Shown piece by piece: positions 29,202 to 48,627 of a stretch of DNA of 64,000 nt (its first letter is position 1; the number at the start of each line of letters is the position of its first letter). The DNA is taken from positions 4,131 to 68,130 of the forward strand of contig JACPOZ010000021.1 in assembly GCA_016191235.1 (NCBI GenBank), written 5' to 3'. The stretch comes from Gammaproteobacteria bacterium. GTDB lineage: Bacteria > Pseudomonadota > Gammaproteobacteria > Ga0077554 > Ga007554. A program made the translations under genes and the position numbers. The notes beneath the pieces are model-generated. The model was given only the letters and a program-made list of their open reading frames with translations, was not told where the DNA came from and ran no database searches.

Positions 29202-29326
29202 ACCCGCCCTCAAACCTCATAATCAACCAGACGCCGCTCCGAGCGCACCGCCATCACAAATTCCTTGACCTCTTCATGCAATGGATGGCTCTGATATACA
29301 TCCAGTGCCGCCCTGCTCTCGAACTC
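29202..29326. repeat. 125-bp direct repeat, left copy
   Basis: Identical to 31178-31302 except 29276 A versus 31252 G. Confidence 0.95.
29210..29326 (-). pseudogene. orphan 3' fragment of the Dabb-domain gene (last 38 codons plus stop)
   Basis: Lies within the left repeat copy and encodes ...EFESRAALDVYQSHPLHEEVKEFVMAVRSERRLVDYEV*. No upstream coding continuation. Confidence 0.75.
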
Positions 29327-29341
29327 AGGATTCAGCAATGA

Positions 29342-31003
29342 CTATTCGGGAAGCGGGAACAACTGCTTTGACCTGCGCCACCACAACCCCATCAATGCGA
29401 GCAATGCCAGCGGCTCAAACGCACCGCCGCCTCCAGAAGAGGGGGGTGAAGATGACGGCGTAGATGGCGCGGCCTCGGCAACAGACCTGATGCCTTGCCC
29501 ACTCAGCGCTAAAGGTTGATAACCGGCAGCGGAGTCACTGAACACCATCACTTCTCCGGTATAAGAATATTCGCCAGCGGATGAATACGTTACCGCAAAC
29601 TGGCACTGGCCGCCCGCCTCGATGGTATTACCGGAACAGGTATCATTTTTGATACCAAAATCACCCGTGGTGCCACTCTCCCCGGCAACCAAAAGGACCG
29701 CATCGATCTTCAGGGGCAACGCACCAGCATTTGATAACGTAACCACATGCTCCTTACTTTGTCCAACAGGGACACTGAAAGTGAGTGGCCCGGTGTCCAA
29801 CTTGATCGCCGATGTCAGCGTGGGACCAGTGATTTTTTTAAGTTCCTCGGAGTCTGAGCTAAATTTTCGCGCGAGCTGAAGCGTTGCGGTATCTATGACG
29901 TAAACATTGCTGTAGCTCGCACATCCCGGTTGAACTGTAGCACTGGAGGTTACGCGGAGTCTGGGCTGGTAGAATTGTATTTCCAGGCCCTGCGGCAGGC
30001 CAGACATTGGAATGCTGATATACGAAACTGCCGTGGACGATAAATCCACGGAAGCCAACAGAGTAGCGTTGCTACTGGTGTCGCCGATCGTCGCATAGAG
30101 ATTCTTGCCTTCCGCATCAATAACCATGTCACCGGCAACACGATTCTCCCCCACAAAACTTGTTACCAGTGTAACCACTTTTGTTGCCACATTCATCGCC
30201 ACAAGCTTTCCTGAAGTCTGGCTTAGAATATAAAGACGGGAGCCATCGGGATGAGCAACAAGACGGTTCGGGATATCGCTGAGAATTATGGTATCAACTA
30301 CCGTGCGGGTAACCGTATCTATCACATAAACCGCGTTCTCGCCCTCGCTGGCCACAAACAATTTTCTGCCATCAGGGCTTAAAGCCATCGAGGAAGGCTT
30401 GCTGCCCACAACAATGGTCACAACAACCACATGCTCTGGCGCCTTGATGATGGAAACAGTCCCATCGTCGTAATTTGACACGTAAACGTACCGTCCGTTG
30501 GGACTGATGGCCATAGCGCGCGGCGCGGCACCGACATTCACGATGGTGCTGGCTGTGCTCGCGGAGGCAACAGAAGTACTTGCAAGGTCAACAACCGATA
30601 CTGTTTTATCTGTGGGATTAAGCGCGTAAGAAAACGGCCCTCGCTTAATTTCCTGGACTCCGCCAGAGGAAAAAGAAACGGTTTGAAATACATAATCTGA
30701 GGGGGGTGTACATACGATGCTGGAAAAAGTATCTGGGAGTGGCACCGTTATCTGTCTTTGGGTAAACCCTACATCTACCGCTGCAATAGGGTTCGATATT
30801 GTGAACGGATCAGATGCTGCCCCACTTGCAATATGCCAGGAATCAAACACAGAAGTTGGACGCCCGGAAACCGGAACGACCTGCTGCCCAACCTCTATGA
30901 CTTTTATGTCTTCCGGCGGCGACGCCACGCCTGCAGAAATCAAACCAACCACTGATGAAAGTCCCAAACAAAACCCTGCAAGGCGGGCATACCTGGATCG
31001 CAT
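29342..31003 (-). CDS. secreted YVTN-type beta-propeller protein with a choice-of-anchor-D-like domain and GlyGly-CTERM-like tail (paralog 1)
   Basis: ORF 29342..31069 trimmed to the signal peptide MRSRYARLAGFCLGLSSVVGLISAGVA. Repeated blades (YVYVSNYDDGTVSIIK, LFVASEGENAVYVIDT, LYILSQTSGKLVAMNV). Cys-pair Ig-like domain (DTCSGNTIEAGGQCQFAVTY). C-terminus SSGGGGAFEPLALLALMGLWWRRSKQ. Confidence 0.8.
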   Translation of the reverse strand: MRSRYARLAGFCLGLSSVVGLISAGVASPPEDIKVIEVGQQVVPVSGRPTSVFDSWHIASGAASDPFTISNPIAAVDVGFTQRQITVPLPDTFSSIVCTPPSDYVFQTVSFSSGGVQEIKRGPFSYALNPTDKTVSVVDLASTSVASASTASTIVNVGAAPRAMAISPNGRYVYVSNYDDGTVSIIKAPEHVVVVTIVVGSKPSSMALSPDGRKLFVASEGENAVYVIDTVTRTVVDTIILSDIPNRLVAHPDGSRLYILSQTSGKLVAMNVATKVVTLVTSFVGENRVAGDMVIDAEGKNLYATIGDTSSNATLLASVDLSSTAVSYISIPMSGLPQGLEIQFYQPRLRVTSSATVQPGCASYSNVYVIDTATLQLARKFSSDSEELKKITGPTLTSAIKLDTGPLTFSVPVGQSKEHVVTLSNAGALPLKIDAVLLVAGESGTTGDFGIKNDTCSGNTIEAGGQCQFAVTYSSAGEYSYTGEVMVFSDSAAGYQPLALSGQGIRSVAEAAPSTPSSSPPSSGGGGAFEPLALLALMGLWWRRSKQLFPLPE

Positions 31004-31177
31004 ATCTTTTATTCTCCGCCGAAAAGGAAATTTATCGCTTCTATCTGACCATTTCTCCTTTTGAACCACGCTACTTCCCTAAGGCTTGGGTGAGCATAGC
31101 AAAGCGAAAACCAGCCGGTCAATCGAATACGCAGAGGCTAAGCTGCGCAAATCAGATACTAGAGCCTCCCATCAGAC

Positions 31178-31302
31178 ACCCGCCCTCAAACCTCATAATC
31201 AACCAGACGCCGCTCCGAGCGCACCGCCATCACAAATTCCTTGACCTCTTCGTGCAATGGATGGCTCTGATATACATCCAGTGCCGCCCTGCTCTCGAAC
31301 TC
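31178..31302. repeat. 125-bp direct repeat, right copy (inside the intact Dabb gene)
   Basis: See 29202-29326. Confidence 0.95.
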
Positions 31303-36832: not shown

Positions 36833-36961
36833 ATGGTTCAAAATATTGGCATCAACATTCTGATTCCTTTGGCAGTATTTGGCTTCCTGATCTTTGGTTC
36901 AGGCTTGATCGCAAGCGCTGCTTTCAAGGACATCGCCGGACGGAAAGGCAAGAAGAGCTAA
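36833..36961 (+). CDS. 42-aa single-TM micro-protein (hypothetical)
   Basis: Not in the ORF track (under 60 aa). ATG at 36833 lies 8 nt after ggggaggg. Sequence is MVQNIGINILIPLAVFGFLIFGSGLIASAAFKDIAGRKGKKS, a hydrophobic helix with a basic tail. Followed by a strong terminator. Confidence 0.4.
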   Translation: MVQNIGINILIPLAVFGFLIFGSGLIASAAFKDIAGRKGKKS

Positions 36962-36973
36962 CGCTCGCTACGG

Positions 36974-37018
36974 CCCTAAATAAAAAAGCCCGGCATTGCC
37001 GGGCTTTTTTATTTAGGG
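36974..37018. terminator. bidirectional rho-independent terminator (45-bp perfect palindrome)
   Basis: ccctaaataaaaaagcccggca-t-tgccgggcttttttatttaggg. A GC stem (gcccggc/gccgggc) is flanked by A6 and T6. It lies between the convergent micro-ORF and the 910-aa gene. Confidence 0.8.
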
Positions 37019-37032
37019 TTTCTCAAAATCCG

Positions 37033-39765
37033 CTAATTTTGAACTGGCAACAAAGAGTGGGGCTTTTTTTGCGCCTGTCCCAGGCCAAGATCATAAATGT
37101 CACGATCCAGGGGGCTGAGTGCCTTGAGACGGGCGCGATAAAACGACGCCATCTTACCATCGCCGGCATCCCTCTCCATGCGCCATAAGGCCCGCAAGGC
37201 CTCGACATGGTCTGGACGCACCTGCAAAATAGCCTGCAAGGCCTGCCGTTTGTTCATGCCGCGATCCAGCGCCTGTGGCAATGTCGCCAGCATCTTGTCG
37301 GCCAGGTCAAAACCAATCCAGCGATCACGGGGATTGGCCTCAAAGGCGAGGCGCATCAGACGCTGCGCCTCGCCCGTATTATCACCACGCAGCGCAGCCA
37401 CCCAGCTTCTCGCCGCCAAAAAAGAGGCCACATAGCTGCGCTCGAATTCCTGCGCATTATTGGCCGGCACATTCATGGCGAGCGCTGCCTGCGCCAAGCC
37501 TGGCCGCTGCTCCAGCAGCTTGGACAATAATACATCGAGATTAAATGCATCGCGGTAACGTGCGCGCGGCAAACGGTATTCGATCTGCGGCGCCCATTCA
37601 TCCTGCACCGGACCCACGCCTGGCGGAATCGGTCCCCAGTAGCGGCCCAACCATGTCCATGCACCCTCCCCGCCCGTCGCGGCGGATTGCCCGGCTTGCG
37701 CAAGACGGCCCAAATTTGCCAGCAATGCGGGCGCGCCCTGCACAACGTCCTTCGGACCTACCAATGCGACGCGGAAACCATCCATAAAAATTACCGCACC
37801 GGGGAAAACCTTCCGAAAGCTGCGGAAAATTATACCCAATGATCCGGCATCGAATTGATTCAGGGCCAGCCACTGCACAAACAACCCATTTTCCGTCAAC
37901 CTGTCACGGGCGCGCTGAAATTGCTGCACTGACAACAAGGCACTATGCCCCACCAGATCGGGATGAAACAAATCGCCAATAATGACATCGTAATGCCCCG
38001 TATCCCGGCGCAAAAAGCGTCGCGCGTCATCTCGCGTCACAGCCAGCTTGCCCATCACATCCTGATTCACCGGCGCAAACCACTGCGCCGCTGCCGTAAT
38101 AGCCCCCTGCGAAAGCTCCACTGCCTTGCGCGACAATTGCGGGTACGGCAGCGATCCCGCCGCAGATATCCCCGTACCCAAGCCAAGAAACAGCACCGAG
38201 TGCGGCGCGGGGTGCAGCATCAGTGGCAAACGGGCCTGATTTTGCTGCGCCTCGACAGCAGCGGGATCGGAAGATGCGTCCATGCGCTGCAAATCGGCCA
38301 GCAACAAACGCTGACCGTCGACCCGTTCCACAACGTGGGTAATTGAGATGGCATCTTCATGCACATAAATATCCTGACTACCCGCCTGGGTCACAGGCAG
38401 CAGCACATTCACTGCGGGCAGCTCATACACCCTGCCCACCCCCGCCAGACCCATTACACCGAGCATAGTCAGCCAGGGCCAGCGGCTATCCGCCCACACC
38501 ATGCCGCACGCGAATAACAAAACTGCCGCCAGACACAAAGTACCCATGGTTCCCAGCCAGGGTATGAGCACAAATCCCGCCAGCACTGCACCCAACGCCG
38601 CACCCAACGAATTGACGCCATACAGCCACGATCCAGTGCTATGCTGATCTCCCAGTCGGCTATTGAGCAACGGCAACCACGCACCGAGCGCCAGCGTCAC
38701 CGGCAAGGTCAGCGCGGCCACAGCCAGCCCCTGCCACCACAATGCGCCCGCGAGGGATGAAAAATGCGCCTTTTCGACCCACGCCGCCAACTGCGGTACC
38801 AGCCCCAGGCCCAGCAGGCTAAAACTGCCCGCCAGCAACGGCAACACAGCAAACCAGCGCGCGCCGCGCATGTGCCGCGCCGCCAAGCTGCCCAGACCAA
38901 TACCCACCAGGAACACTGCCAGCAGCACTGCCAGCACATATTCGGTACGCAACAGGATCATGCCGAACAGGCGCGTCCAACCCACCTGCAGCATCAATGC
39001 CGCCGCACCCACGCCGGCATAGGCGGCGAGCGATACGAATGATAACCGCGCAGCGCCTTCCCTTGGGCTTTCCTTCGCAGCCGCAGCGTTCGCCAGCGGC
39101 GTAAAGGACAACAAAAACGCCGCCATGCCCACGCACAACCCAATCCCGGCAACCACCCGCACAGCGCTCGACCATCCCAGCCATGGCAACAGCAGCAAGG
39201 GCAATAACGCCCCCGCCGCGCCACCCACGGCATTGAAGCCATAGATCTTGCCTAATGAGACACTGGGTGATGCGGCTCCGCCTGCAAGCACCCTAAGCAC
39301 CAAAGGGAATCCCGCCCCCATTGCCAGCGCGGGGACAAACAACAATACCAATGCGGCCAGGGATTGCAACGCATACCATACCGTAAGCTCCGCCTGCGCG
39401 GCATACGCACCCAGCCAGCCATCCAGCACCTGCTGCATCCATGGCATACACAGGGCATAGAGAGCGACCCCAACCTCCAGCGCGGCAAAAGCCACCAGCG
39501 GCGCCCGCGCGTTGCGCGCAAACCTTACTCCCAGCAAACTGCCCAGGCCAAGGCCAGCCATGAAGGTGGCGACCGTCACCACCACACCGAAAATGCTGAC
39601 CCCGAATTGCAGGCCCAACATGCGTGCCCACAAAACCTCATAGGCGAGGCTGGTCAGGCCGGAGATAAAATACAGCAGGATCAGTACCCAGACCCAACGG
39701 TGGGGGGCATTGCCTTGCGGAGAGGAATCGCTCAAGTCAGATTTGAGCGCCTGATCAACTTGCAT
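37033..39765 (-). CDS. fused polytopic membrane (MFS-like) / spermidine-synthase-like / TPR protein
   Basis: 910 aa. About 14 N-terminal TM helices, a central SAM-fold aminopropyltransferase-like segment (VLFLGLGTGISAAGSL...YDVIIGDLFHPDL) and a C-terminal TPR-like region. Confidence 0.78.
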   Translation of the reverse strand: MQVDQALKSDLSDSSPQGNAPHRWVWVLILLYFISGLTSLAYEVLWARMLGLQFGVSIFGVVVTVATFMAGLGLGSLLGVRFARNARAPLVAFAALEVGVALYALCMPWMQQVLDGWLGAYAAQAELTVWYALQSLAALVLLFVPALAMGAGFPLVLRVLAGGAASPSVSLGKIYGFNAVGGAAGALLPLLLLPWLGWSSAVRVVAGIGLCVGMAAFLLSFTPLANAAAAKESPREGAARLSFVSLAAYAGVGAAALMLQVGWTRLFGMILLRTEYVLAVLLAVFLVGIGLGSLAARHMRGARWFAVLPLLAGSFSLLGLGLVPQLAAWVEKAHFSSLAGALWWQGLAVAALTLPVTLALGAWLPLLNSRLGDQHSTGSWLYGVNSLGAALGAVLAGFVLIPWLGTMGTLCLAAVLLFACGMVWADSRWPWLTMLGVMGLAGVGRVYELPAVNVLLPVTQAGSQDIYVHEDAISITHVVERVDGQRLLLADLQRMDASSDPAAVEAQQNQARLPLMLHPAPHSVLFLGLGTGISAAGSLPYPQLSRKAVELSQGAITAAAQWFAPVNQDVMGKLAVTRDDARRFLRRDTGHYDVIIGDLFHPDLVGHSALLSVQQFQRARDRLTENGLFVQWLALNQFDAGSLGIIFRSFRKVFPGAVIFMDGFRVALVGPKDVVQGAPALLANLGRLAQAGQSAATGGEGAWTWLGRYWGPIPPGVGPVQDEWAPQIEYRLPRARYRDAFNLDVLLSKLLEQRPGLAQAALAMNVPANNAQEFERSYVASFLAARSWVAALRGDNTGEAQRLMRLAFEANPRDRWIGFDLADKMLATLPQALDRGMNKRQALQAILQVRPDHVEALRALWRMERDAGDGKMASFYRARLKALSPLDRDIYDLGLGQAQKKPHSLLPVQN

Positions 39766-39795
39766 GAGGTGTTTTTAAGTTAGGCAAAAAGATCG

Positions 39796-40170
39796 TCAGA
39801 AAGGAAAGAACCAGACAATGGCAGTGACCGCATGGGCAATCGCCAGAAAAACGCTGAATCCCGCAAATATCATATGCGCAACAAAAACCTGCTTGCCATA
39901 CACAGCCATCGCGATACCGAGCGCGGCAGCGCCAATAATACCAATCAGCAACAAGATGCCCATGATAAATAAAATCTGGTGCTTCTTTTTATCGGAAATC
40001 AACACATCCTTGCCGACAGTCTGCTCCTTGTTGACAAAGGATTGCATCACCTCCTGACTCTCATTTGCCCTGACCGGCGGCGACGCCATTGCACCCATAA
40101 AAATCGCCACAAGGAATAACACCAGCCAGCTTTTCCTGGCACCCACCATGCGGCAACTTGCTGCTGTCAT
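39796..40170 (-). CDS. small membrane protein (hypothetical)
   Basis: 124 aa with a signal/anchor helix and two C-terminal TM helices. GGAG SD 8 nt before the ATG at 40170. Ends 30 nt upstream of the 910-aa gene. Confidence 0.55.
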   Translation of the reverse strand: MTAASCRMVGARKSWLVLFLVAIFMGAMASPPVRANESQEVMQSFVNKEQTVGKDVLISDKKKHQILFIMGILLLIGIIGAAALGIAMAVYGKQVFVAHMIFAGFSVFLAIAHAVTAIVWFFPF

Positions 40171-40192
40171 GCTTCCAACTCCGACACATATT

Positions 40193-40212
40193 AAAAAGCC
40201 CCGAACGGGGCT
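40193..40212 (-). terminator. rho-independent terminator-like hairpin
   Basis: On the minus strand: agcccc-gttc-ggggct followed by ttttt. It lies only 23 nt upstream of the ATG at 40170. Confidence 0.55.
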
Positions 40213-40258
40213 TTGATCAACAATAATTCATCCTGCAACAAAAAACCTGCGCCTCCTG

Positions 40259-40498
40259 CTACGCCTCTTCCGGCTCCTTGGTTACCTCGGCCCCCTCTGC
40301 GCGTTTGCGCATGGCAAAATACCAATAAAGGATCGCTATAATAATGATGGGACCCAATACCATGGGCAACAAAAACAAAAAAATTAGCCAAGGCGTATCA
40401 ATCGTAACATGCAAATAGCGGTAGCTATCCAGCGCCAAGGCGGAATCCGATAGCAACAACAGCGGAAAAAAACCAAACAAACCAATATATTTTTTCAT
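40259..40498 (-). CDS. small exported/membrane protein (hypothetical)
   Basis: ORF trimmed to the ATG at 40498 (MKKYIGLFGFFPLLLL...), preceded by AGAGGTGG. One further TM helix and a charged tail. Confidence 0.5.
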   Translation of the reverse strand: MKKYIGLFGFFPLLLLSDSALALDSYRYLHVTIDTPWLIFLFLLPMVLGPIIIIAILYWYFAMRKRAEGAEVTKEPEEA

Positions 40499-40513
40499 AA
40501 TTACCACCTCTGA

Positions 40514-41578
40514 TCAGGATGGGTCAGCATCTTTGGCGCAGCGAAATCCAAAGAAATCGGATGCGGCGTAAGGCCAAGAGAAATTCCGGTGATAGGTCGA
40601 GGTGGAAAATGGATCGCTCTTCCAGGAACCACCGCGCAGAACCTTGTAGCGCTTTTCTGTAGGCACCAGATCCACAATTTTCAGCGACCTGTCCGCCGCC
40701 GAATTTATCTGGGCAATTTTGGCCTTAAAAACATCCTCCGGCGCATCACTGCCCGCATACGGGAGCAGGTCATTTTCAACCCACTGGCTGACATTGCCTG
40801 CCATGCCAAGCACCCCATAAGGACTTGCCCCTGAAGGATAAGCTGTTACAGGCGTGGTTGAGCCTACTGAATAATAGGTGTTCAATCGCGTAGGGTCCAT
40901 TTTATCCCCCCATGGCCAGCGCCGCCCATCCACGCCGCGCGCCGCTTTCTCCCACTCCGCCTCGGTGGGCAGGCGCTTCCCCGCCCATTTTGCGTAACTC
41001 ACTGCATCAAACCACGACACCATCGTCACAGGATGCAACTCGGCACCCTCGGGAATTCTGCCCTTACGCCAATTCAGGGGCGGTCGATGGCCCGCCGCTA
41101 CAAAGCGCGCATATTGGGCGTTGGTTACCGGATATTTATCAATCAGATACGGCCTTAGCACGACGCGATGCTGTGGACGGTTTTGCACATCGTCGCGCTC
41201 CCGATCCGTACCCATCACAAATTCACCTGCGGGGATCAAAATAGTCGAATCCACTTCACGCCATTGCTCAGGCGTCAACAGTGCCTCCACCTCGGCTGGC
41301 GTATAAGCTACCGCCACAGCCCCTTCGCTTGCCCTACGCTTGTTAAGCGTTATATCCTCGCCCGCTGCCCGGATTTTACTATGCATTTCTTTGAGGTCAT
41401 AAGAGGCTTTACTGCGCATATCCGCCATGCGGTTGGAACCGAGCTTCACCACATGCAAGGTTGCAAAGATCATGGTCAAGGCAACACATGAGACCAAGGT
41501 TGCCGCAATATACCGCTTGCGTATGGCAATCTGCCCTGGGGTCGCAACTCGGGCACTACGAATCTCGCCCGACCTCAC
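40514..41578 (-). CDS. membrane-anchored formylglycine-generating-enzyme (FGE-sulfatase/SUMF1/NirV) family protein
   Basis: 354 aa with an N-terminal TM anchor. Motifs: GEFVMGTD, HRVVLRPYLIDKYPVTNAQYARFV, HPVTMVSWFDAVSYAKWAGKRLPTEAEWEKAARG, RVLRGGSW and FGFRCAKD. Start overlaps the upstream stop (ATGA type). Confidence 0.85.
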   Translation of the reverse strand: MRSGEIRSARVATPGQIAIRKRYIAATLVSCVALTMIFATLHVVKLGSNRMADMRSKASYDLKEMHSKIRAAGEDITLNKRRASEGAVAVAYTPAEVEALLTPEQWREVDSTILIPAGEFVMGTDRERDDVQNRPQHRVVLRPYLIDKYPVTNAQYARFVAAGHRPPLNWRKGRIPEGAELHPVTMVSWFDAVSYAKWAGKRLPTEAEWEKAARGVDGRRWPWGDKMDPTRLNTYYSVGSTTPVTAYPSGASPYGVLGMAGNVSQWVENDLLPYAGSDAPEDVFKAKIAQINSAADRSLKIVDLVPTEKRYKVLRGGSWKSDPFSTSTYHRNFSWPYAASDFFGFRCAKDADPS

Positions 41579-42096
41579 TTTTCTACTCCAGACGATACAC
41601 TGTCGGCACCCGGCAGACTCTCGGGAGCTAATTCGCTGCCTGCCTTTTTGTAGAGCCTATGCCGCAAATGGCTGGGAGTACGCCCATAGGTCTTTTTCAC
41701 AACAATTTCACCCACCAGGCCACCTACCCCCGCGAGTTCCATGGCAATCAAAACAACCAGCAGCCAGTATACCAATGGAAGCAGTCTAACGCCCTCCGGT
41801 ATCGCGGTATAGCCGTAGAAGACATCCAGATACTTATACCCCTGCACAATAAAAGGCACAAAAAATGCCAACAGCTTACCCCCAAATCCGTAAATCAACG
41901 CGACGGGGAGTCCGGCAACAAACGGCACCAAAAAGAGCGACATAGCCCAATCATAAGTGAAATAATCAATCCCGGAAAACAAGTGCAGTTGCACGCCTGT
42001 CCAACGGTCACCAATAACATTGATGATAACACCCACCGTTATGGCAATGGTCGCCATCAGAACATCAAGGAGCCTGCTTTTAATTTTTCCGTTCAT
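41575..42096 (-). CDS. polytopic membrane protein (hypothetical)
   Basis: 173 aa, about 5 TM helices. Has 4-nt overlaps with both neighbouring genes. Confidence 0.6.
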   Translation of the reverse strand: MNGKIKSRLLDVLMATIAITVGVIINVIGDRWTGVQLHLFSGIDYFTYDWAMSLFLVPFVAGLPVALIYGFGGKLLAFFVPFIVQGYKYLDVFYGYTAIPEGVRLLPLVYWLLVVLIAMELAGVGGLVGEIVVKKTYGRTPSHLRHRLYKKAGSELAPESLPGADSVSSGVEK

Positions 42097-42602
42097 TGGG
42101 GCGTTTTACCTGCTGCAAGATAAGGCTTGCCTGTCAGCTTCTCAAACTCTGCCTTTTTAGTCTCTTCCAGATACCAATCCTGCACCTTCAGGCTAGCCAT
42201 ATACGAAGCAAGGACTTTGCGCTCTTCCTCGGAAAGATGTGCATAGGAAGGCATTTTATACATTTTTTTCAATCGCGTAGGAAGAATCGCCTGGGGGTTC
42301 TCGGCAGAAAAATACGCATAAAACCACTGCTCGTCACGCAATGAGCCAATACCATCCAATGCCGGAGCAGGCACATTAGCGCTCATATCCCGCACACTCC
42401 ACAGTGAGTGACAGTTTTTACATTCAAGCCGTCGATAAAGATCGGAACCCGCAACCTCCAGCTGGGAGGACGCCGCTGAATAAAAGGGGATACCACGATC
42501 CACCTCTTTTTTTTCAGTGTTCAATTGCCATATTTTGTGGCCCACCAGCACCACAGACAAAACCGCAATAACGGCAAGAATGCCCTTCTCGCCTTTACGC
42601 AT
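42093..42602 (-). CDS. membrane-anchored monoheme c-type cytochrome (short FixO/CcoO-like)
   Basis: 169 aa with an N-terminal TM helix and a single CKNCH heme motif. The downstream PAPALDGIGSLRDEQWFYAYFSAENPQAILPTRLKKMYKMPSY resembles the CcoO signature. Confidence 0.72.
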   Translation of the reverse strand: MRKGEKGILAVIAVLSVVLVGHKIWQLNTEKKEVDRGIPFYSAASSQLEVAGSDLYRRLECKNCHSLWSVRDMSANVPAPALDGIGSLRDEQWFYAYFSAENPQAILPTRLKKMYKMPSYAHLSEEERKVLASYMASLKVQDWYLEETKKAEFEKLTGKPYLAAGKTPQ

Positions 42603-42610
42603 TTAAATTC

Positions 42611-42871
42611 CTACTTATCTTTCTTCGCCAGGTTCTCTTCCCGGCGCTGTATCTGATGTTTCATCACTTCCTGGCTTTTTGAAAATTCCTCGGGTGACAT
42701 CTTGTTTTTATCCTTCTCGTCAAAGACAACGTATTTAATGTCCTCGTCAAACTGCTCGTTCTTGGCCGCCCACCACATAAAATAACCCGCCGCGATCAAA
42801 ATAAATGCTGCGGCGACAAGCCAAACATATATGGTCCAACCATCGGGTAAAGATTGCAGGTATTCAGTCAT
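42611..42871 (-). CDS. CcoS/FixS-like small membrane protein
   Basis: 86 aa. One TM helix followed by WWAAKNEQFDEDIKYVVFDEKD, which matches the W-x3-(S/N)-(G/E)-Q-(F/Y)-(D/E)-D pattern of cbb3 maturation protein CcoS. AGGAGA SD. Confidence 0.55.
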   Translation of the reverse strand: MTEYLQSLPDGWTIYVWLVAAAFILIAAGYFMWWAAKNEQFDEDIKYVVFDEKDKNKMSPEEFSKSQEVMKHQIQRREENLAKKDK

Positions 42872-42880
42872 GTCTTTCTC

Positions 42881-43228
42881 CTAGAAGAGGTAACCTTCGA
42901 TCATTTGCGTCCAGCCAAAAGTCACACCAATAATAATGCCCATAATGAGGGCGCCGAACATCACCTTTTCCCCGGTTTTCAACACTCGCTTGCTTTTTTT
43001 CATGTAGATATAAATCATGAAGGCGAACAATATAACCTGCATTATCAAAAAAACGAAAATGGCGATACTGTAACGGTGGCTATTCAGCCCTTCAATGGTC
43101 AGATCAAGACCAAACAGGCTGCTGGGGCCTTCTTGCACCTTTGCCAGCGCCGCTCCAGAATATTCCCCGAACCGGGTATTTGCAAGAAGAGTTGATAAGA
43201 ACGACCGAAACTCATTCCACATATTCAT
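42881..43228 (-). CDS. small membrane protein (hypothetical)
   Basis: 115 aa with two predicted TM helices. First gene after a 400-bp non-coding gap; weak SD. Confidence 0.45.
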   Translation of the reverse strand: MNMWNEFRSFLSTLLANTRFGEYSGAALAKVQEGPSSLFGLDLTIEGLNSHRYSIAIFVFLIMQVILFAFMIYIYMKKSKRVLKTGEKVMFGALIMGIIIGVTFGWTQMIEGYLF

Positions 43229-43436
43229 AATTACCTAATACACCGTATCACCGCATGATGAGAAAGAGTGCTGCACTATGCGCCCGTCTCGCCATTCAAT
43301 CGTACGATAAGCACGATAAATCCAACACTTTTATAGACAGAAAATAGCAGCAATCGTTCGTTTTGAGAGTCGCACAACTTTTGCTAGTATAGTGCATCGT
43401 TCTTCACGGTATTTATGCGCAAACCATTGTAGTTCT

Positions 43437-43475
43437 GGCTTTAGCCCAACATGTCGGGTTAAAACCCGACCTACC
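43437..43475. repeat. REP-like hairpin
   Basis: ggctttagcccaacatgtcgggttaaaacccgacctacc (stem gtcgggtt/aacccgac). I recall it resembling a widespread proteobacterial repeat family (not checked). Confidence 0.4.
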
Positions 43476-43546
43476 ATGCGTTGCTGGCTGTGCCCATAAG
43501 TTCCAGATAGCTTGCAACACCATACTAGCCACTAGAAGTGCAGGGC

Positions 43547-43584
43547 AATAAAAAAGATGCCGCCCTTCATCAGAGCGGCATCTT
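43547..43584 (-). terminator. rho-independent terminator ending the oxidase operon
   Basis: 10-bp stem aagatgccgc / gcggcatctt with an 11-nt loop, followed on the minus strand by ttttatt. Confidence 0.7.
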
Positions 43585-43629
43585 AGCAGGATATTACCTT
43601 ACCTACCCAGCGGGTAGGCAGACATCAAA

Positions 43630-43782
43630 CTACTTGAATGCCTCAGCATCCTTCGCCATTTGCTTGTCTTCCTTATGCTCACGCCAGTATTTATCCACGA
43701 TTGTGCTGTACAGGAATGGCGCGGTAAACACAAAGGCGATGATTGCCGCCGCCACCATAGTAAGGTTGTCGATATCGATCAT
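43630..43782 (-). CDS. 50-aa single-TM micro-protein (CcoQ-like by size and topology only)
   Basis: Not in the ORF track. AAGGAGG lies 8 nt before the ATG at 43782. Sequence is MIDIDNLTMVAAAIIAFVFTAPFLYSTIVDKYWREHKEDKQMAKDAEAFK. It starts 25 nt after the preceding stop and is followed by a terminator. Confidence 0.55.
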   Translation of the reverse strand: MIDIDNLTMVAAAIIAFVFTAPFLYSTIVDKYWREHKEDKQMAKDAEAFK

Positions 43783-43807
43783 GCTTTAGTCCTCCTTAAA
43801 AATTAAA

Positions 43808-44440
43808 TCAAGTAGTGACGGGCTTCTTGGAGAAGTGTGGCAAGCGCTTGATCATGATGAACATCCACAAGCAGTAGTAGCTCACGTAGAACACGTCAAT
43901 AGTGTATCCCTTGTCCCACCAAGGCTGCTTGCGCTCCCTCACGCCATCCGCACGGAAATTGCCCTCGAAGTTGGCCAAAACAACCTTGTCACCCAACACC
44001 GTGAAGTTGTCAAGAGGATATTTGGTCTGCTTCTGTAGTTCAATGATGTGCGGAGCCAGATTCTGCAAGTCGTACCAGTCGATGGGATGACGTTCAAGCT
44101 GACCTTTCAATGCGTTATCCGGCGCCCTGTTGTATGCCTCGGTGTTGATGTATTTCATCTTCTCCTCGGCGGTGGCAAGCTTCTGCACCTCCGGAGAATT
44201 CATCAACTCCACGTGGGTTTGATAAATTGCAGCCGTCGGCCTTTGCCCCCATATTGGCATGGTAAGCATGAATGCAGTGAGAATGATCAGTGCAATCAGG
44301 AACGTCAGCGGGAAGGGGAGGCGATTATTCGCCGGGTGTATCAACCCACCCATTCTTTCCTCGCCCCACATCTTTAATATTTGCTGCTGTTCTTGCTCAT
44401 CAGAAAGCGAGTACAGCGGGTTATCCATTTTCCAGGCCAT
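43808..44440 (-). CDS. two-TM membrane protein occupying the CcoP position (no heme motif)
   Basis: 210 aa. AAGAGGGG SD, 26 nt after the CcoO-like stop. TM helices LPFPLTFLIALIILTAFMLTMPIW and IDVFYVSYYCLWMFIMI. No CxxCH. Confidence 0.6.
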   Translation of the reverse strand: MAWKMDNPLYSLSDEQEQQQILKMWGEERMGGLIHPANNRLPFPLTFLIALIILTAFMLTMPIWGQRPTAAIYQTHVELMNSPEVQKLATAEEKMKYINTEAYNRAPDNALKGQLERHPIDWYDLQNLAPHIIELQKQTKYPLDNFTVLGDKVVLANFEGNFRADGVRERKQPWWDKGYTIDVFYVSYYCLWMFIMIKRLPHFSKKPVTT

Positions 44441-44466
44441 AATATACCCCTCTTATATATGATTGA

Positions 44467-45441
44467 TTACTTCAGACTCAGAACCCAGTCAATCAAGGCA
44501 CGGATTTCGCTATCGGGCGCGTAATCGGGTACCTCTGGCGGATAGGTTCTCTTGCCTTCGGAGTACTCCTTATATTCGGCGCGCCACTTATCAAAGTCGA
44601 TAGTGTTTCCCTGCGCGTCTTTATCACCCCACAGGTAGTCAAAACGCGGCATGATGGAGTTGACCTGCACCAATCTGGGATTGAAGAAGTGCATCATCAT
44701 CCACTCGCGAGAGGAGTTTCTGGAAGCGACGTGGAGAATATCCGGCGCTTTGCGGTCGGAACCGAATGCGGTCGGATTTTCACCATTGAAGTCGCCCAGG
44801 TAGGGAGGGGCACCAAAAGCCTGCCAATCCTGGGTCTGCTCAGGCAGGAGGGTATGGCACCACCAGCATCCCTGCACGACAAACTCCGTCTTGCCTTTGG
44901 AAATGAGATGGGTATTCTTATCTCCGGCAGCAGCAAGGGTAGCATCAGGCGTCCAACCCTTGGTCACCGAGGCATTTTCGATGTAGGTCAGCTCTTCACC
45001 ATTAAACTCACCGAGCGCCAGCGTGAAGACCACACCTTCCTGACTCCCTTTGCTATGATTCGAGCCGCTGACAGTACTAATTTGCCCTTGGCTTTCGCTC
45101 AGGTCCTGGACGCCCTTACCCAGATCGTGGGGGTGCCGGATATTCGGCGGCATCGGAACACCCGCCTTGTACACATACGCCCTCACCGGCGGATCCAGCT
45201 TTGCGCCGGTTTTAGGGTCCGTCTCCAGATCGACAGTGATAGGTCTGTTGATACCCAGCAATAGCGGATCAGCATAACCAAACCCTATGTCGAACCCTGC
45301 CGACAACTGCTTCTCCAGGGCCATCTTGGTTGACACCGCAGACCTCAAGTCAAAGCTAGGCATGAAGATTGTGATAGTCATCGAGAGTCCTAACGCACCC
45401 CCGACCATTGCGGCACCTAATCTATACTCTTTAAAAGCCAT
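44467..45441 (-). CDS. enlarged CcoO/FixO-like monoheme cytochrome c subunit
   Basis: ORF trimmed to the ATG at 45441 (GGGAGGG SD). One TM anchor and a single CWWCH. CcoO signature ...FGSDRKAPDILHVASRNSSREWMMMHFFNPRLVQVNSIMPRFDYLW. Roughly 125-140 extra residues lie between the anchor and the heme motif. Confidence 0.8.
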   Translation of the reverse strand: MAFKEYRLGAAMVGGALGLSMTITIFMPSFDLRSAVSTKMALEKQLSAGFDIGFGYADPLLLGINRPITVDLETDPKTGAKLDPPVRAYVYKAGVPMPPNIRHPHDLGKGVQDLSESQGQISTVSGSNHSKGSQEGVVFTLALGEFNGEELTYIENASVTKGWTPDATLAAAGDKNTHLISKGKTEFVVQGCWWCHTLLPEQTQDWQAFGAPPYLGDFNGENPTAFGSDRKAPDILHVASRNSSREWMMMHFFNPRLVQVNSIMPRFDYLWGDKDAQGNTIDFDKWRAEYKEYSEGKRTYPPEVPDYAPDSEIRALIDWVLSLK

Positions 45442-45473
45442 TTTTATCCCTCCCAACTATTGGTTCACATTAT

Positions 45474-45502
45474 ATCCCCCGGCAACTAGGCGTCCGGGGG
45501 AT
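45474..45502 (-). promoter_or_regulatory. intercistronic stem-loop between the ccoN-like and ccoO-like genes
   Basis: atcccccgg-N11-ccgggggat, a 9-bp perfect stem within the 94-nt spacer. No T-run on the minus strand. Confidence 0.4.
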
Positions 45503-45535
45503 TTTAGGATCATGTAACGATATCAGATGCCTCTT

Positions 45536-46945
45536 TTAACGCTCGTATGCCAACTCGTGAGCATAACGGCCATCTGGAACCAACGTACCCACGCGGGCGG
45601 TCATCCACATGTTGTAGAGCCACACCAAATTGCCGGTAAACACCATGGTGCCACCAACCCAGCGTGCGATCATGTAGGGGTGCTCTGCAATCACGACGTC
45701 GATATAAGGCACCTCGTAGATCTTGCCAGCACCCTGGATCAGACCTGCGATTGTCATTGATATCCAGTAGGTACAGAAGCCGATCAGCACGAACCAGTAG
45801 TGGAAGTTGGCCAAGGCCAAGGAGTACAGCTTTCTCTTTAGCATCTGCTGCAGGCCAAAATAGACCGCCGCGATTTCCAGGAAGGTGGACATTCCCAGCA
45901 AAGCCAAGTGGGCATGTGCCACGATCCAGCCCGTGCCATGGATGAACCAGTTAATGGAGCGGGTCTGCTGGAATCCACCCTGCATGTTAAGGGGAATCGC
46001 CAGAAACACGCCAGTAACGGAGAATTTGATCTCGATGTTCTCCACGAACATGCTCCACTTACCTTTCATGGTCAACAAAATGTTGGCAACAAAGGCAACG
46101 GCGGGGATCAAAATCAACACACCTTCCACGGAGGCAAAGGACTTCAGCCACTCAGGCAATGGCGAGGACATCAAGTGGTGCGAGGCCGGGGTCGAATAAA
46201 ACACGACGATCGACCAGAAGTGCATATGGCCGATGCGATGCGAGTAGAGCGGGTTACCCGTCAGCTTGGGAATTGTATAGTACGCAATTGCTGCTGCGAC
46301 CGGGGTAATCCACAGGCCCAAAAGATTATGGGCATTCCACCAGGTCAGGTACGCTTCAGACAAGCCTGTGAGGTGGAAATACTCAGGGGAGTTACCGACT
46401 AACAGCACGATACCGACCATGAAGGTACAGGCGCCGAAGAACCAGTTGGTGATATAAATACCTTGAGTACGACGGTGAGCGATCGTCATGATGACGTTGA
46501 CGCACAACGGCGCGATAACACCAAGCAGTATCACCAGGTCAAACGGCCATGCAAAATCGGAATACTCACGGCCCGAGGTGATGCCGATCCAAAGGCTGAG
46601 CAGCGCCGAGGAAAGACCGACGTTCCATAAGAGCGCCGTCCAGAGACCCAACTTTTCCGACCACATCCGGGTATTACCCAAAGCAGGCGTCATATACATC
46701 ATGGTCATGGCAAATGCCATGGAAATCCAGCCGACGATCACTGCGAGAACATGCACCTGACGCATATGACCGAATGCGAACAGCTCCGTACCGGTTACAA
46801 AATCCGGGAACGCCAGCTTTGCGGCATTAAACGAACCCAAGCCCGTTCCGACCACAAACCAGAAAATAGCGGAAAATCCAAAGAATATCGCCGCTGATCC
46901 TGGCGGGATATCCTCATTCTTTGCGGACAAATATTTAAATAACAT
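45536..46945 (-). CDS. C-family (cbb3-type) heme-copper oxidase subunit I, CcoN-like
   Basis: 469 aa, about 12 TM helices. Motifs: FGHMRQVHVLAV (helix II His), GREYSDFAWPFDL, WWNAHNLLG (CuB His), FYSTPASHH (Y-x5-HH) and WIVAHAHLALLGM (HxH). GGAGGTGAGGGG SD. Confidence 0.9.
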   Translation of the reverse strand: MLFKYLSAKNEDIPPGSAAIFFGFSAIFWFVVGTGLGSFNAAKLAFPDFVTGTELFAFGHMRQVHVLAVIVGWISMAFAMTMMYMTPALGNTRMWSEKLGLWTALLWNVGLSSALLSLWIGITSGREYSDFAWPFDLVILLGVIAPLCVNVIMTIAHRRTQGIYITNWFFGACTFMVGIVLLVGNSPEYFHLTGLSEAYLTWWNAHNLLGLWITPVAAAIAYYTIPKLTGNPLYSHRIGHMHFWSIVVFYSTPASHHLMSSPLPEWLKSFASVEGVLILIPAVAFVANILLTMKGKWSMFVENIEIKFSVTGVFLAIPLNMQGGFQQTRSINWFIHGTGWIVAHAHLALLGMSTFLEIAAVYFGLQQMLKRKLYSLALANFHYWFVLIGFCTYWISMTIAGLIQGAGKIYEVPYIDVVIAEHPYMIARWVGGTMVFTGNLVWLYNMWMTARVGTLVPDGRYAHELAYER

Positions 46946-47002
46946 AACCCCTCACCTCCCAGGTAGTAACACTAACCTTTATTCTGCCCAAACAAACACA
47001 AG

Positions 47003-47095
47003 TTACTCTTTCATCATATTCAGAAGATACCAAGACATCCACATACTCGAGAACGCGAGCAAGATACCGCAACCACCAGCGAATGTCGCCAACAT
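47003..47095 (-). CDS. 30-aa hydrophobic micro-ORF upstream of the ccoN-like gene (hypothetical)
   Basis: Not in the ORF track. GGGGG lies 7 nt before the ATG at 47095. Sequence is MLATFAGGCGILLAFSSMWMSWYLLNMMKE. Confidence 0.35.
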   Translation of the reverse strand: MLATFAGGCGILLAFSSMWMSWYLLNMMKE

Positions 47096-47185
47096 AATGA
47101 AACCCCCTTTAATTAAAAACTGAAGAGACTAGCTACCAGCAAAGGAAATACCAGCAAGGAAACCCATGATTCCCCGCCCAACCTA

Positions 47186-47491
47186 TTAAAAATACGCTGG
47201 CTTTTCACCTTTGGCGACGGCCTCGGCCTCAAGCTTGCCGTGCCTGCTCATCGCCATCACCTGAATGATGAAGAACGCAACCCCGAAGGCGATCATCATA
47301 CAGTCGACAAACCCCGAAAAAGTCGCCGGATTGTATTGCTCTGCACCCCAGCCGCCCCAGCTTTCATAGGGGCCACGCCCTACGGCACACATCACTGCGG
47401 CGCCGAACACACTTCCATTACCCATGCCAGTGGTCACACCACCGATAAAAGCGGGAAAAAATATTTTCCCCAAAGTCAGCTTATTATTCAT
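47186..47491 (-). CDS. small membrane protein (hypothetical), first gene of the oxidase operon
   Basis: 101 aa. GGGAGGG SD 4 nt before the ATG at 47491. Two Gly-rich TM helices. Confidence 0.55.
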   Translation of the reverse strand: MNNKLTLGKIFFPAFIGGVTTGMGNGSVFGAAVMCAVGRGPYESWGGWGAEQYNPATFSGFVDCMMIAFGVAFFIIQVMAMSRHGKLEAEAVAKGEKPAYF

Positions 47492-47859
47492 CTATCCCTC
47501 CCATATGGTTGCTGCTGCTTATGCACTTACTCGTTAACTGTGCAAACCCGGAATGACACATGGCGAATGTCATTCGCCATCTATTACCACTAATAAAAAC
47601 AAATTGCAAGGTGGCGTCAAGCTAATCCCTTATAAACTGCATCCCATATCTGATCGTGCCATATGGCTGCATCCGACGTCAAGACGTGTTTTGCATTTAT
47701 GTTCGCATGCCATTCACGGCCTCATTAGGCAGCCATTGCACGGGGGCATGCAGCAGGCGTTCTGCACACCTCATCCATCTACGCAATTCCTCGTATTTCC
47801 AGGCAATAAGCACTTATGGCGCCGAGGAGGTCAAGGCGTGGACGCATAAAATATCCGGA

Positions 47860-48627
47860 TTAAAAATCATACTCTATGATCAGCGGGGCATGGTCGGAGA
47901 AGCGCTGATCTTTGTAAATAGATGCTTCTTTGACTTTATCTTTCAGGCCCGGTGTAATCACTTGATAGTCGATGCGCCATCCCACGTTTTTGGCCCACGC
48001 CTGGCCACGGTTGGACCACCAAGTATATTGATCCGCCTCCTGGTTGATGACGCGAAAGGCATCCACAAATCCCAGTGGACCGAATAACTCGTCCATCCAG
48101 GCACGCTCTTCCGGCAGAAAACCGGAGTTTTTCTGGTTGCCACGCCAGTTTTTGAGGTCAATCTGTTTATGGGCGATGTTCCAGTCGCCACAGATGATGT
48201 ATTCGCGCCGGTCTTCCTGGAATTGCCTGAGAACGGGCCTGATGCGTTCCATAAGGTCAAATTTCACCGCTTGGCGCTGCTCGCCACTGCTGCCTGAGGG
48301 CATGTATAGGGAGATGACGCTGAGACTGCCGAAATCAGCCTGGATAAAACGCCCCTCTGCATCGATATCCTGCCAGCCCAGCCCCATCACCACGCGATCC
48401 GGCTTCTTTTTGCAATACAGCGCCACGCCGCTGTAACCTTTCTTTTCGGCATCATGAAAATAGGCGTGATAGCCGGACGGGTGGTAGGTTTCGGGGGGAA
48501 GCTGATGCTCCTGCGCCTTGGTTTCTTGCAGGCACACGACATCGGCGTCCTGCTTTAGCATCCACTCAAAAAATCCTTTGCTGGCAGCAGAGCGGATGCC
48601 GTTGGCGTTGAGTGCGATTATTTTCAT
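47860..48627 (-). CDS. xthA: exodeoxyribonuclease III
   Basis: 255 aa with MKIIALNANGIRSA start, CLQETK, and C-terminal SDHAPL. Confidence 0.93.
   Translation of the reverse strand: MKIIALNANGIRSAASKGFFEWMLKQDADVVCLQETKAQEHQLPPETYHPSGYHAYFHDAEKKGYSGVALYCKKKPDRVVMGLGWQDIDAEGRFIQADFGSLSVISLYMPSGSSGEQRQAVKFDLMERIRPVLRQFQEDRREYIICGDWNIAHKQIDLKNWRGNQKNSGFLPEERAWMDELFGPLGFVDAFRVINQEADQYTWWSNRGQAWAKNVGWRIDYQVITPGLKDKVKEASIYKDQRFSDHAPLIIEYDF

Follow-up and report, generated by a model that had tools for sequence, protein, structure and literature searches.

The window analysed here is a stretch of 64,000 nucleotides from contig JACPOZ010000021.1 of a Gammaproteobacteria bacterium (assembly GCA_016191235.1, contig positions 4,131 to 68,130). 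On its minus strand 13 genes form a collinear module at 37033-47491, which includes the operon of a cbb3-type haem-copper oxidase. Six companion genes at 40259-43228, the subject of this analysis, form the middle of the module. All six open reading frames that a first-pass annotation had listed for this segment were found on the minus strand with the boundaries assigned to them. The genes and signals of the module are as follows (aa, amino acid residues).

47186-47491, minus strand: g101, first gene of the 13-gene module, upstream of ccoN
45536-46945, minus strand: CcoN-like protein, 469 aa (Pfam COX1, 249 bits)
44467-45456, minus strand: CcoO-like protein, 329 aa (Pfam FixO, 50 bits)
43808-44440, minus strand: g210, oxidase operon
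43630-43782, minus strand: g50, last gene of the oxidase operon
43554-43584, minus strand: intrinsic terminator after the oxidase operon, 13-bp stem followed by a T-run
42881-43228, minus strand: g115, 115 aa, first gene of the companion operon, two predicted transmembrane helices (54-72 and 89-107)
42611-42871, minus strand: CcoS/FixS-like peptide with a single transmembrane helix, 86 aa (FixS match, orthologs)
42093-42602, minus strand: membrane-anchored monoheme class I cytochrome c, 169 aa (Cytochrom_C match; C61-x-x-C64-H65; Met117 in MPS)
41575-42096, minus strand: mem173, polytopic protein, 173 aa, about four transmembrane helices (open reading frame and helix prediction)
40514-41578, minus strand: protein with the fold of the formylglycine-generating enzyme (FGE), 354 aa, GTG start (PF03781 match)
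40259-40507, minus strand: g82, 82-aa open reading frame (79-82 aa by start choice), with transmembrane prediction
40193-40212, minus strand: hairpin after g82, 8-bp GC-rich stem followed by TTTTT (from the sequence; fold z -4.1)
39796-40170, minus strand: g124, conserved downstream member with a C-terminal transmembrane hairpin
37033-39765, minus strand: spm910, 910 aa, about 13 transmembrane helices and a spermidine-synthase-like domain, last member of the module

The 4-nt overlaps between neighbouring genes were confirmed, ATGA at 42093-42096 for the cytochrome gene and mem173 and GTGA at 41575-41578 for mem173 and the FGE-like gene. The motifs quoted in the first-pass annotation were likewise present (W34-x3-N-E-Q-F-D-E-D in the CcoS-like peptide; C61-K-N-C-H65, DGIGSLRDEQW and MPSY in the cytochrome). 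The GTG of the FGE-like gene is the sole possible start upstream of the conserved residues R20 and R22, and a GGAG sequence lies 7 nt upstream of it. For g82 the more likely true start is the ATG at 40498, which follows AGGTGG and would yield the signal-peptide-like N-terminus MKKYIGLFGFFPLLLLSDSALA. The genes are real and not chance open reading frames, since collinear orthologs with 27-93% identity and invariant motifs were found in dozens of genomes. The conserved unit reaches past 40259 and takes in g124 and spm910.

Conservation of the module

One genome per species was scanned, which yielded 345 relatives of the CcoN-like protein, and the best 80 of these 345 (79-99% identity) were taken with 10-kb flanks. 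The 80 loci are metagenome-assembled genomes of Gammaproteobacteria sensu lato and comprise Gallionella, Sideroxydans, Candidatus (Ca.) Nitrotoga, Ca. Tenderia and Thiotrichaceae as well as Chromatiales, Ectothiorhodospiraceae and Thiohalomonadales. The 13 window proteins were searched against these loci by tblastn, and a locus was counted as assessable for a gene when it extended far enough. The entire module keeps its order and orientation in every locus with a long enough contig. The counts for the single genes were as follows.

CcoS-like peptide: 67/67 assessable loci
Cytochrome: 66/66 assessable loci
FGE-like protein: 59/59 assessable loci
g82: 58/58 assessable loci
g124: 56/56 assessable loci
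spm910: 53/54 assessable loci
g115: 65/69 assessable loci
mem173: 60/66 assessable loci

Thus, the linkage of an FGE gene to a ccoN-like gene, whose absence the first-pass annotation had named as refuting its proposal, held wherever it could be assessed, and chance adjacency of the companion genes and the oxidase was considered and rejected. The gene of mem173 is truly absent from six loci of one subclade (L039, L041, L046, L053, L067 and L078), where the cytochrome gene lies directly 5' of the FGE-like gene. Since these two genes stay adjacent when mem173 is missing, the cytochrome-FGE pair is the conserved core of this part of the operon.

Unlike the 13-gene core, the outer flanks vary among the loci. 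In most relatives two truncated COX1 genes of about 170 aa each frame the core, one upstream along with a dihaem Cyc1, a monohaem cytochrome and a thioredoxin-like gene, the other downstream along with a CcoG-like ferredoxin and two hypothetical genes. These Cyc1, truncated COX1, thioredoxin-like and CcoG-like flanks are carried by most of L008-L080 and L083. In the window and its closest relatives (L001-L006) the 13-gene core alone is found between xthA/pyrE and rpsF/rpsR.

For canonical cbb3 oxidases, as in Rhodobacter capsulatus and Bradyrhizobium, the biogenesis cluster is ccoGHIS (fixGHIS). The companion operon resembles this cluster in being a separately expressed set of membrane protein genes beside ccoNO which includes a single-helix peptide of the CcoS type. 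The absence of ccoG, ccoH and ccoI noted in the first-pass annotation was confirmed for the window. Homologs of CcoH and CcoI were not found in any of the 80 loci either, and a CcoG-like gene occurs in 35 relatives only. In place of ccoGHI the companion set consists of the membrane-anchored cytochrome c, the FGE-fold protein, four small membrane proteins and the spermidine-synthase-like polytopic protein.

The first-pass annotation regarded a role of such genes beside a cbb3 oxidase as not described. This does not apply to the cluster itself, as this very gene order has been drawn in a preprint on Tenderiales (bioRxiv 10.1101/2022.05.06.490989, Fig. 2B). The 'cbb3-1/cbb3-2 region' of Tenderia (genes 9-20 of that figure; 'complex IV-2' in PMC5371394) matches the module of the window in gene order and sizes: a small protein, CcoN, CcoO, hypothetical proteins, a monohaem cytochrome, a hypothetical protein, a protein of about 357 aa, small transmembrane proteins and a spermidine-synthase-like protein. 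Almost certainly, the Tenderia region and the window carry one and the same module. The window differs from the Tenderia region in holding the 13-gene core without the Cyc1, truncated CcoN, thioredoxin and CcoG flanks. The preprint considers a possible membrane complex with assembly proteins, an 'alternative complex IV' conserved in freshwater iron oxidisers, and labels the FGE-like gene of about 357 aa a serine/threonine protein kinase (bioRxiv 10.1101/2022.05.06.490989). What is now recognised beyond the Tenderia papers is the FGE fold of this '357-aa kinase', the loss of its cysteines and the CcoS-like peptide. Among the results listed by literature searches that combined FGE or sulfatase-modifying factor with cbb3, no paper describes a link between them.

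Proteins of the companion operon

FGE-sulfatase (PF03781; 188.7 bits, residues 109-349) was the only Pfam family found in the 354-aa protein. The protein consists of an N-in transmembrane anchor at about residues 24-44, a helical linker of about 60 aa and the FGE-sulfatase domain. The N-terminus carries six Lys/Arg and one Asp/Glu ahead of a single transmembrane helix and, therefore, the FGE domain is predicted to be periplasmic. The membrane-anchored, periplasm-facing FGE-fold protein of the first-pass annotation is thus supported by helix and charge prediction. By sequence and fold the nearest solved relatives are ToxD, the C-terminal domains of EgtB and OvsA, FGE, CalU17, pFGE and PvdO. An AlphaFold2 model of the FGE-fold protein (mean predicted local distance difference test, pLDDT, of 73) matched FGE structures in Foldseek with a probability of 1.00.

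The first-pass annotation had argued from the copper dependence of FGE-fold proteins, and an alignment of the catalytic Cys pair was performed. The catalytic segment RGGSYLCHDSYCNRY of Streptomyces FGE corresponds to RGGSWKSDPFSTSTY in the 354-aa protein, where both cysteines are replaced (S321 and T326). Among 79 family members no Cys occurs in this loop, and T326 is invariant. Since the Cu(I)-binding Cys pair (RGGS-x2-C-x4-C) is replaced by Ser321/Thr326 throughout the family, the copper argument is without basis here.

At the position of the FGE Cys loop the family carries a loop of its own, K320 to H330 (K-S-D-P-F-S-T-S-T-Y-H), in which K320, D322, P323, F324, T326 and H330 are invariant. 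These residues are essentially absent from the approximately 25 other FGE-domain representatives that align there. Judged by this invariant loop and by a sequence conservation about equal to that of the CcoO-like subunit, the FGE domain is not a decayed relic. The transmembrane anchor holds an invariant H42 near its periplasmic end, followed by invariant G47 and R50, and the linker segment R70-A-A-G73-E74 is nearly invariant. For a simple anchor this degree of conservation is unusual, and it hints at contact with another helix or with a cofactor.

In a search of 1.84 billion cluster representatives the full-length family formed a single cluster at 50% identity (P0141). All other matches covered the FGE domain only; hence, the anchor and the linker are unique to the family. 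The matches were dominated by giant multi-domain proteins with FGE repeats, and no fusions to cytochromes were revealed. In the databases the family is named 'hercynine oxygenase', 'iron(II)-dependent oxidoreductase', 'gamma-glutamyl hercynylcysteine S-oxide synthase' or 'serine/threonine protein kinase'. These names are transfers from the common fold and are not appropriate. An active FGE was rejected on account of the replaced Cys pair and the lack of a sulfatase among the 13 module genes. An enzyme of the EgtB or SenA type was rejected as well, with 115 versus the required 360 bits for EgtB and 91 versus 420 bits for SenA, both over the C-terminal part only. A DinB-like iron domain was not found, residues 1-107 being transmembrane helix and helical linker. 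A Ser/Thr kinase was rejected in the absence of a kinase domain.

The 354-aa protein has its fold in common with FGE (SUMF1), pFGE (SUMF2) and PvdO. Like pFGE and PvdO it lacks the catalytic Cys pair, and it shares with PvdO, which is periplasmic, the predicted location. It differs from all three in its N-terminal transmembrane anchor, unique linker and own invariant loop. Its genomic partners are a haem-copper oxidase and a cytochrome c, whereas those of FGE and PvdO are sulfatases or pyoverdine genes. A tblastn search of a plasmid collection with the FGE-like protein gave matches in 358 records, and the candidates inspected were other FGE-domain genes (caspase-linked in Sinorhizobium, sulfatase-linked FGE in Salipiger, ABC-transporter-linked in Ensifer). 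In a guessed 49-kb stretch of pSymA no FGE-like gene was found.

The first-pass annotation had also drawn a parallel to NirV. NirV is an FGE-domain protein often encoded beside nirK, with unknown function and not mandatory for NirK; it is present in about 61% of nirK genomes (PMC4770552). Both NirV and the 354-aa protein are FGE-domain proteins encoded beside a copper-containing respiratory enzyme, a likeness by context alone. No nitrite reductase or nirK was matched among the module genes checked (Pfam and NCBIfam) or among the window and locus genes examined. The 354-aa family is obligatory in our sample (59/59) without nirK, in contrast to NirV with its partial occurrence in nirK genomes.

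The assignment of the 86-aa peptide as CcoS-like was supported by its relatives. In a tblastn search of 7.3 Gb of plasmid-collection records with the peptide, the top match was a 68-aa open reading frame of Aeromonas caviae, which directly follows the genes of FixH and of a P-type ATPase of the CcoI type; its FixS score is 67.7 bits. This bona fide CcoS aligned with the 86-aa peptide over 63 residues (BLASTP E 4e-9), spanning the transmembrane helix and the motifs W-x-x-[KR]-x-E-Q-F-[DE]-[DE] and [IV][LV]FDE. In the reverse tblastn search the Aeromonas CcoS found 42656-42832 as its sole match in the window. FixS was matched by 52/56 orthologs of the peptide at E <= 0.01. The transmembrane helix lies at about residues 13-36, and the CcoS-type motifs after it are invariant in the 56 orthologs, as are an N-terminal DGWTIY and QFDE..KY..F. 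The peptide differs from canonical CcoS in this N-terminal DGWTIY, in a charged C-terminal tail of about 40 residues and in the lack of CcoH and CcoI genes nearby.

For the 169-aa cytochrome, Cytochrom_C (PF00034) was matched with 33.3 bits (cut-off 21.3). FixO (PF02433) reached 28.7 bits (cut-off 29.6) over only 32 residues (44-75) around the haem motif. Among the orthologs Cytochrom_C was matched by 53/53, Cytochrome_CBB3 by 42/53 and FixO, weakly, by 27/53. C61, C64, H65, M117, P118 and S119 are invariant or nearly so in the orthologs. The N-terminus forms a transmembrane helix (4-22), and the haem domain is predicted to be periplasmic. The cytochrome showed no detectable similarity to the 329-aa CcoO-like protein of the same locus (BLASTP E 1.1). 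Neither sequence nor structure searches gave significant similarity to any solved chain. The best sequence match in the PDB was the c-domain of caa3 subunit II (E 0.027), with CcoO chains at E 0.18-0.54. Foldseek with the AlphaFold2 model (pLDDT 79) found nothing at E <= 0.001 and no CcoO chain in the top 50; weak matches were the c-domain of cd1 NirS and NorC (E 0.05-0.3). A profile search gave 1631 matches, the best 120 of which were all orthologs, named cytochrome c, SoxX or cbb3 subunit. Consequently, the second FixO-like cytochrome of the first-pass annotation, and with it a pair of CcoO-type hemoproteins, was not borne out. By sequence the 169-aa protein is a generic membrane-tethered class I cytochrome c and not demonstrably a second CcoO. 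It shares the N-terminal transmembrane anchor and the class I c-type domain with CcoP, cytochrome cy and NorC. It differs from CcoP in having one haem instead of two, in lacking a FixP_N domain and in being encoded in an operon other than that of ccoNO.

The remaining small proteins gave few matches. No Pfam family was found above the cut-off for g115. In mem173 residues G70, G72-G73-K74, E120, G125-G126, G129-E130 and K134 are invariant; Pfam and NCBIfam gave no match, and a homolog search returned 19 matches, all of them orthologs without names or domains. The g82 protein has a signal-peptide-like N-terminus, a C-terminal transmembrane helix and invariant D27-S28-Y29, T38, W40 and P53. In g124 the residues H99-M100 and H113 of the C-terminal transmembrane hairpin are invariant in 62 orthologs, a His/Met pattern which could ligate haem or copper. 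The spermidine-synthase-like domain of spm910 is weak (Pfam 25.4 bits), and its counterpart in Ca. Tenderia is annotated 'Spermidine Synthase' (PMC5371394).

The neighbouring oxidase and transcription of the module

The 469-aa protein was aligned over its full length with CcoN of P. stutzeri (3mk7). All six His ligands of haem b, haem b3 and CuB and the Tyr of helix VII are kept. On this alignment it is a genuine subunit of a C-family haem-copper oxidase. It represents a divergent CcoN subfamily, since it reaches 227 bits versus the cut-off of 583 bits of the TIGR ccoN equivalog. No gene for CcoP or CcoQ lies beside the oxidase, and no CcoP homolog was found nearby. In the CcoO-like protein, which has a transmembrane anchor at 13-31 and the haem motif CWWCH, the similarity to FixO is confined to residues 182-279, and about 150 residues between the anchor and the haem domain are without a family match. 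Canonical CcoO has no such insertion. The g101 protein, present in 79/80 loci, carries an invariant G22-M-G-N-G-S-V-F-G30 and H84 and matched no family.

In the literature on iron oxidisers 'distal' cbb3 clusters are distinguished from the proximal type by their subunit composition. From the gene order that the window shares with Sideroxyarcus and Sideroxydans loci, its oxidase appears to be of this 'distal', CcoP-less type. In Sideroxydans lithotrophicus ES-1 the distal ccoNO genes are found at about the 99th percentile of expression (PMC8788666), and 'complex IV-2' of Ca. Tenderia electrophaga belongs to the gene sets with the highest expression (PMC5371394).

The first-pass annotation placed the companion genes directly after the oxidase operon. 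Adjacency and common strand were confirmed; a simple continuation of the oxidase operon was not, as the terminator at 43554-43584 (-43.4 kcal/mol, z -4.5) intervenes. The gap between g50 and g115 is 401 nt in the window and 44-548 nt (median 143 nt) across genomes. From g115 through g124 median gaps across genomes range from -4 to 12 nt, and overlaps are frequent. Between g82 and g124, where the window holds the hairpin at 40193-40212, the median spacing in other genomes is 10 nt; the hairpin is possibly a terminator or attenuator ahead of g124.

Expression was followed in Ca. Tenderia electrophaga using published RNA sequencing data of eight samples (PMC5371394, supplementary file 4). The values are log2; the column used is the log counts per million minus the log2 of the gene length in kb, a relation confirmed for Tel_00440. 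The Tenderia genes correspond in order, sizes and annotations, with a gap of 424 nt at the equivalent place. The log2 length-normalised values were as follows.

ccoN: 13.25
ccoO: 12.91
g210: 12.65
g115: 10.21
CcoS-like peptide: 10.73
Cytochrome: 10.47
Membrane protein (mem): 9.95
FGE-like protein: 9.62
g82: 9.39
g124: 9.45

Thus, the mRNAs of the presumed companion orthologs were 5-12-fold less abundant than those of ccoNO, with the step at the equivalent gap. The terminator together with this step-down in Tenderia indicates that the two operons are separate or attenuated units. The electrode potential caused no significant change of expression in either set. The companion genes correlated with the FGE-like gene at r 0.86-0.98 and with ccoN at r 0.71-0.85 (n=8). 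Opposite regulation of the two operons, which the first-pass annotation had regarded as speaking against its proposal, was not seen in these data, where the covariation was positive.

A search for FNR/Anr boxes revealed no site in the three promoter regions of the module. A sigma-70 scan of 43229-43553 gave no convincing promoter, with fewer matches than in shuffled controls. The intergenic region between g50 and g115 contains an 8-bp perfect palindrome (GTCGGGTT..AACCCGAC) at 43453-43470, which is unique within the window and could be an operator or a remnant of a repetitive extragenic palindromic element.

Possible roles of the companion operon

With somewhat better than even confidence we propose that the six genes are an operon of their own, expressed at a lower level and devoted to the CcoP-less ('distal'-type) cbb3 oxidase, and that its products are biogenesis factors and possibly sub-stoichiometric auxiliary subunits. 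All companion products are predicted to be membrane-anchored. Canonical CcoS serves the insertion of heme b/b3 and CuB into CcoN, and the CcoS-like peptide would aid the same step in the CcoN-like subunit. The monoheme cytochrome c, anchored at the periplasmic face, would provide a tethered haem for electron entry or relay in place of the missing dihaem CcoP, as suggested by its architecture together with the absence of CcoP. The FGE-fold protein would be tethered beside the cytochrome and act neither as a formylglycine-generating nor as a copper enzyme. Its peptide or ligand groove, rebuilt around the K-x-D-P-F-x-T-x3-H loop, may bind or modify a periplasmic partner during assembly or maintenance; candidates are an oxidase segment, the cytochrome or a cofactor intermediate.

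Several points weigh against this proposal. All 80 CcoN proteins are at least 79% identical, so that the co-occurrence counts are not independent and are inflated by common ancestry; moreover, the counts come from the best 80 of 345 relatives, the remaining 265 being more distant. The mem173 gene is dispensable in six genomes. The 86-aa peptide itself scores 22.8 bits on FixS (PF03597; cut-off 23.1) and 14 on TIGR00847 (cut-off 28.35). The orthology of the Tenderia genes rests on gene order, sizes and annotations and not on alignment. With n=8 unrelated genes correlate too, for example ggt with the FGE-like gene at r 0.90, and mRNA ratios leave the stoichiometry of the proteins unsettled. The AlphaFold2 model is of low confidence at the FGE loop, with a pLDDT below 50 at 313-329. 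All functional roles, above all the action of the FGE domain, are what we infer from co-occurrence, topology, homology and expression.

A possible, clearly less probable explanation is that the oxidase complex is larger, an 'alternative complex IV' with the cytochrome c, the FGE-fold protein and the small membrane proteins as integral, stoichiometric subunits. The cytochrome would then replace CcoP, and the FGE domain would cap the complex on the periplasmic side or offer a docking site to donors such as Cyc1. Strict co-occurrence and collinearity, the membrane nature of every product, an oxidase with no CcoP homolog nearby and the invariant H42 and R50 in the transmembrane helix of the FGE-fold protein would all fit such a complex. 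The FGE fold also occurs as a structural ring component in PorK/GldK, which are among the PDB and NCBIfam matches, and the Tenderiales preprint suggests likewise (bioRxiv 10.1101/2022.05.06.490989). This explanation is opposed by the strong terminator between the operons, by the 5-12-fold lower companion mRNAs in Ca. Tenderia and by the CcoS-like gene, which points to biogenesis. Both the lower mRNA levels and the CcoS-like gene speak for biogenesis factors rather than stoichiometric subunits, neither being decisive.

It is improbable that the FGE-fold protein and the cytochrome c, perhaps joined by mem173, constitute a periplasmic redox enzyme of their own with PvdO-, EgtB- or ToxD-like chemistry on a small molecule or a protein side chain. 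Such an enzyme would be tied to the oxidase only via regulation or physiology, such as the handling of O2 or reactive species. The closest solved relatives are indeed enzymes (ToxD, EgtB, OvsA, FGE, CalU17), an invariant loop peculiar to the subfamily, with Lys, Asp and His, occupies the place of the FGE active site, and the genes of the cytochrome and the FGE-fold protein are adjacent even without mem173, with frequent start/stop overlaps. Against this stand the loss of all known catalytic residues, with neither Cys pair nor DinB iron domain, a module without substrate-related genes and a family that was never found away from this oxidase in the loci examined. That the database names are right and the 354-aa protein is an FGE, an EgtB-type hercynine oxygenase or iron(II)-dependent oxidoreductase, or a Ser/Thr kinase is hardly credible: the sources do give these names and NCBIfam does match EgtB and SenA in part, but both cysteines are replaced, the EgtB and SenA scores lie far below the cut-offs and concern the C-terminal domain only, the N-terminus is anchor and linker, no kinase domain exists, the FGE domain is predicted to be periplasmic and the module has no sulfatase.

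A wider generalisation, which we regard as unlikely, is that Cys-less periplasmic FGE-fold proteins as a class assist copper redox enzymes outside the cytoplasm. The CcoP-less cbb3 oxidase would then require this family, together with the tethered cytochrome c, for its maturation or repair, or contain it as a true subunit. Examples of such a class may be the pairs of NirV and NirK, of PvdO and the copper tyrosinase PvdP, and of this family and the cbb3 oxidase.

In lithoautotrophs that draw electrons from iron, electrodes, sulfur or nitrite, the 'distal' CcoP-less oxidase ranks with the terminal oxidases of highest expression. If the proposed dedicated operon is correct, the fixed companion set would represent a second route of biogenesis and accessory function for C-family oxidases, distinct from the canonical one, in bacteria that drive the oxidation of iron, sulfur and nitrite at low oxygen. 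It would also give a large and consistently mis-named FGE-fold subfamily its first functional context. The linkage is strict and the enzyme ecologically important; yet the cluster has been published before, the rationale from copper-dependent FGE does not stand and the function is inferential.

Just downstream of spm910 lies a palindromic hairpin at 36974-37018. An Rfam scan of 36900-47900 gave only sub-threshold matches, all on this hairpin and symmetric on both strands; it probably terminates transcription in both directions and closes the module. Outside the module, an identical 14-mer, CTGATATACATCCA, occurs at 29291-29304 and 31267-31280, on either side of a beta-propeller-like open reading frame at 29342-31069, and may be a repeat flanking this gene.

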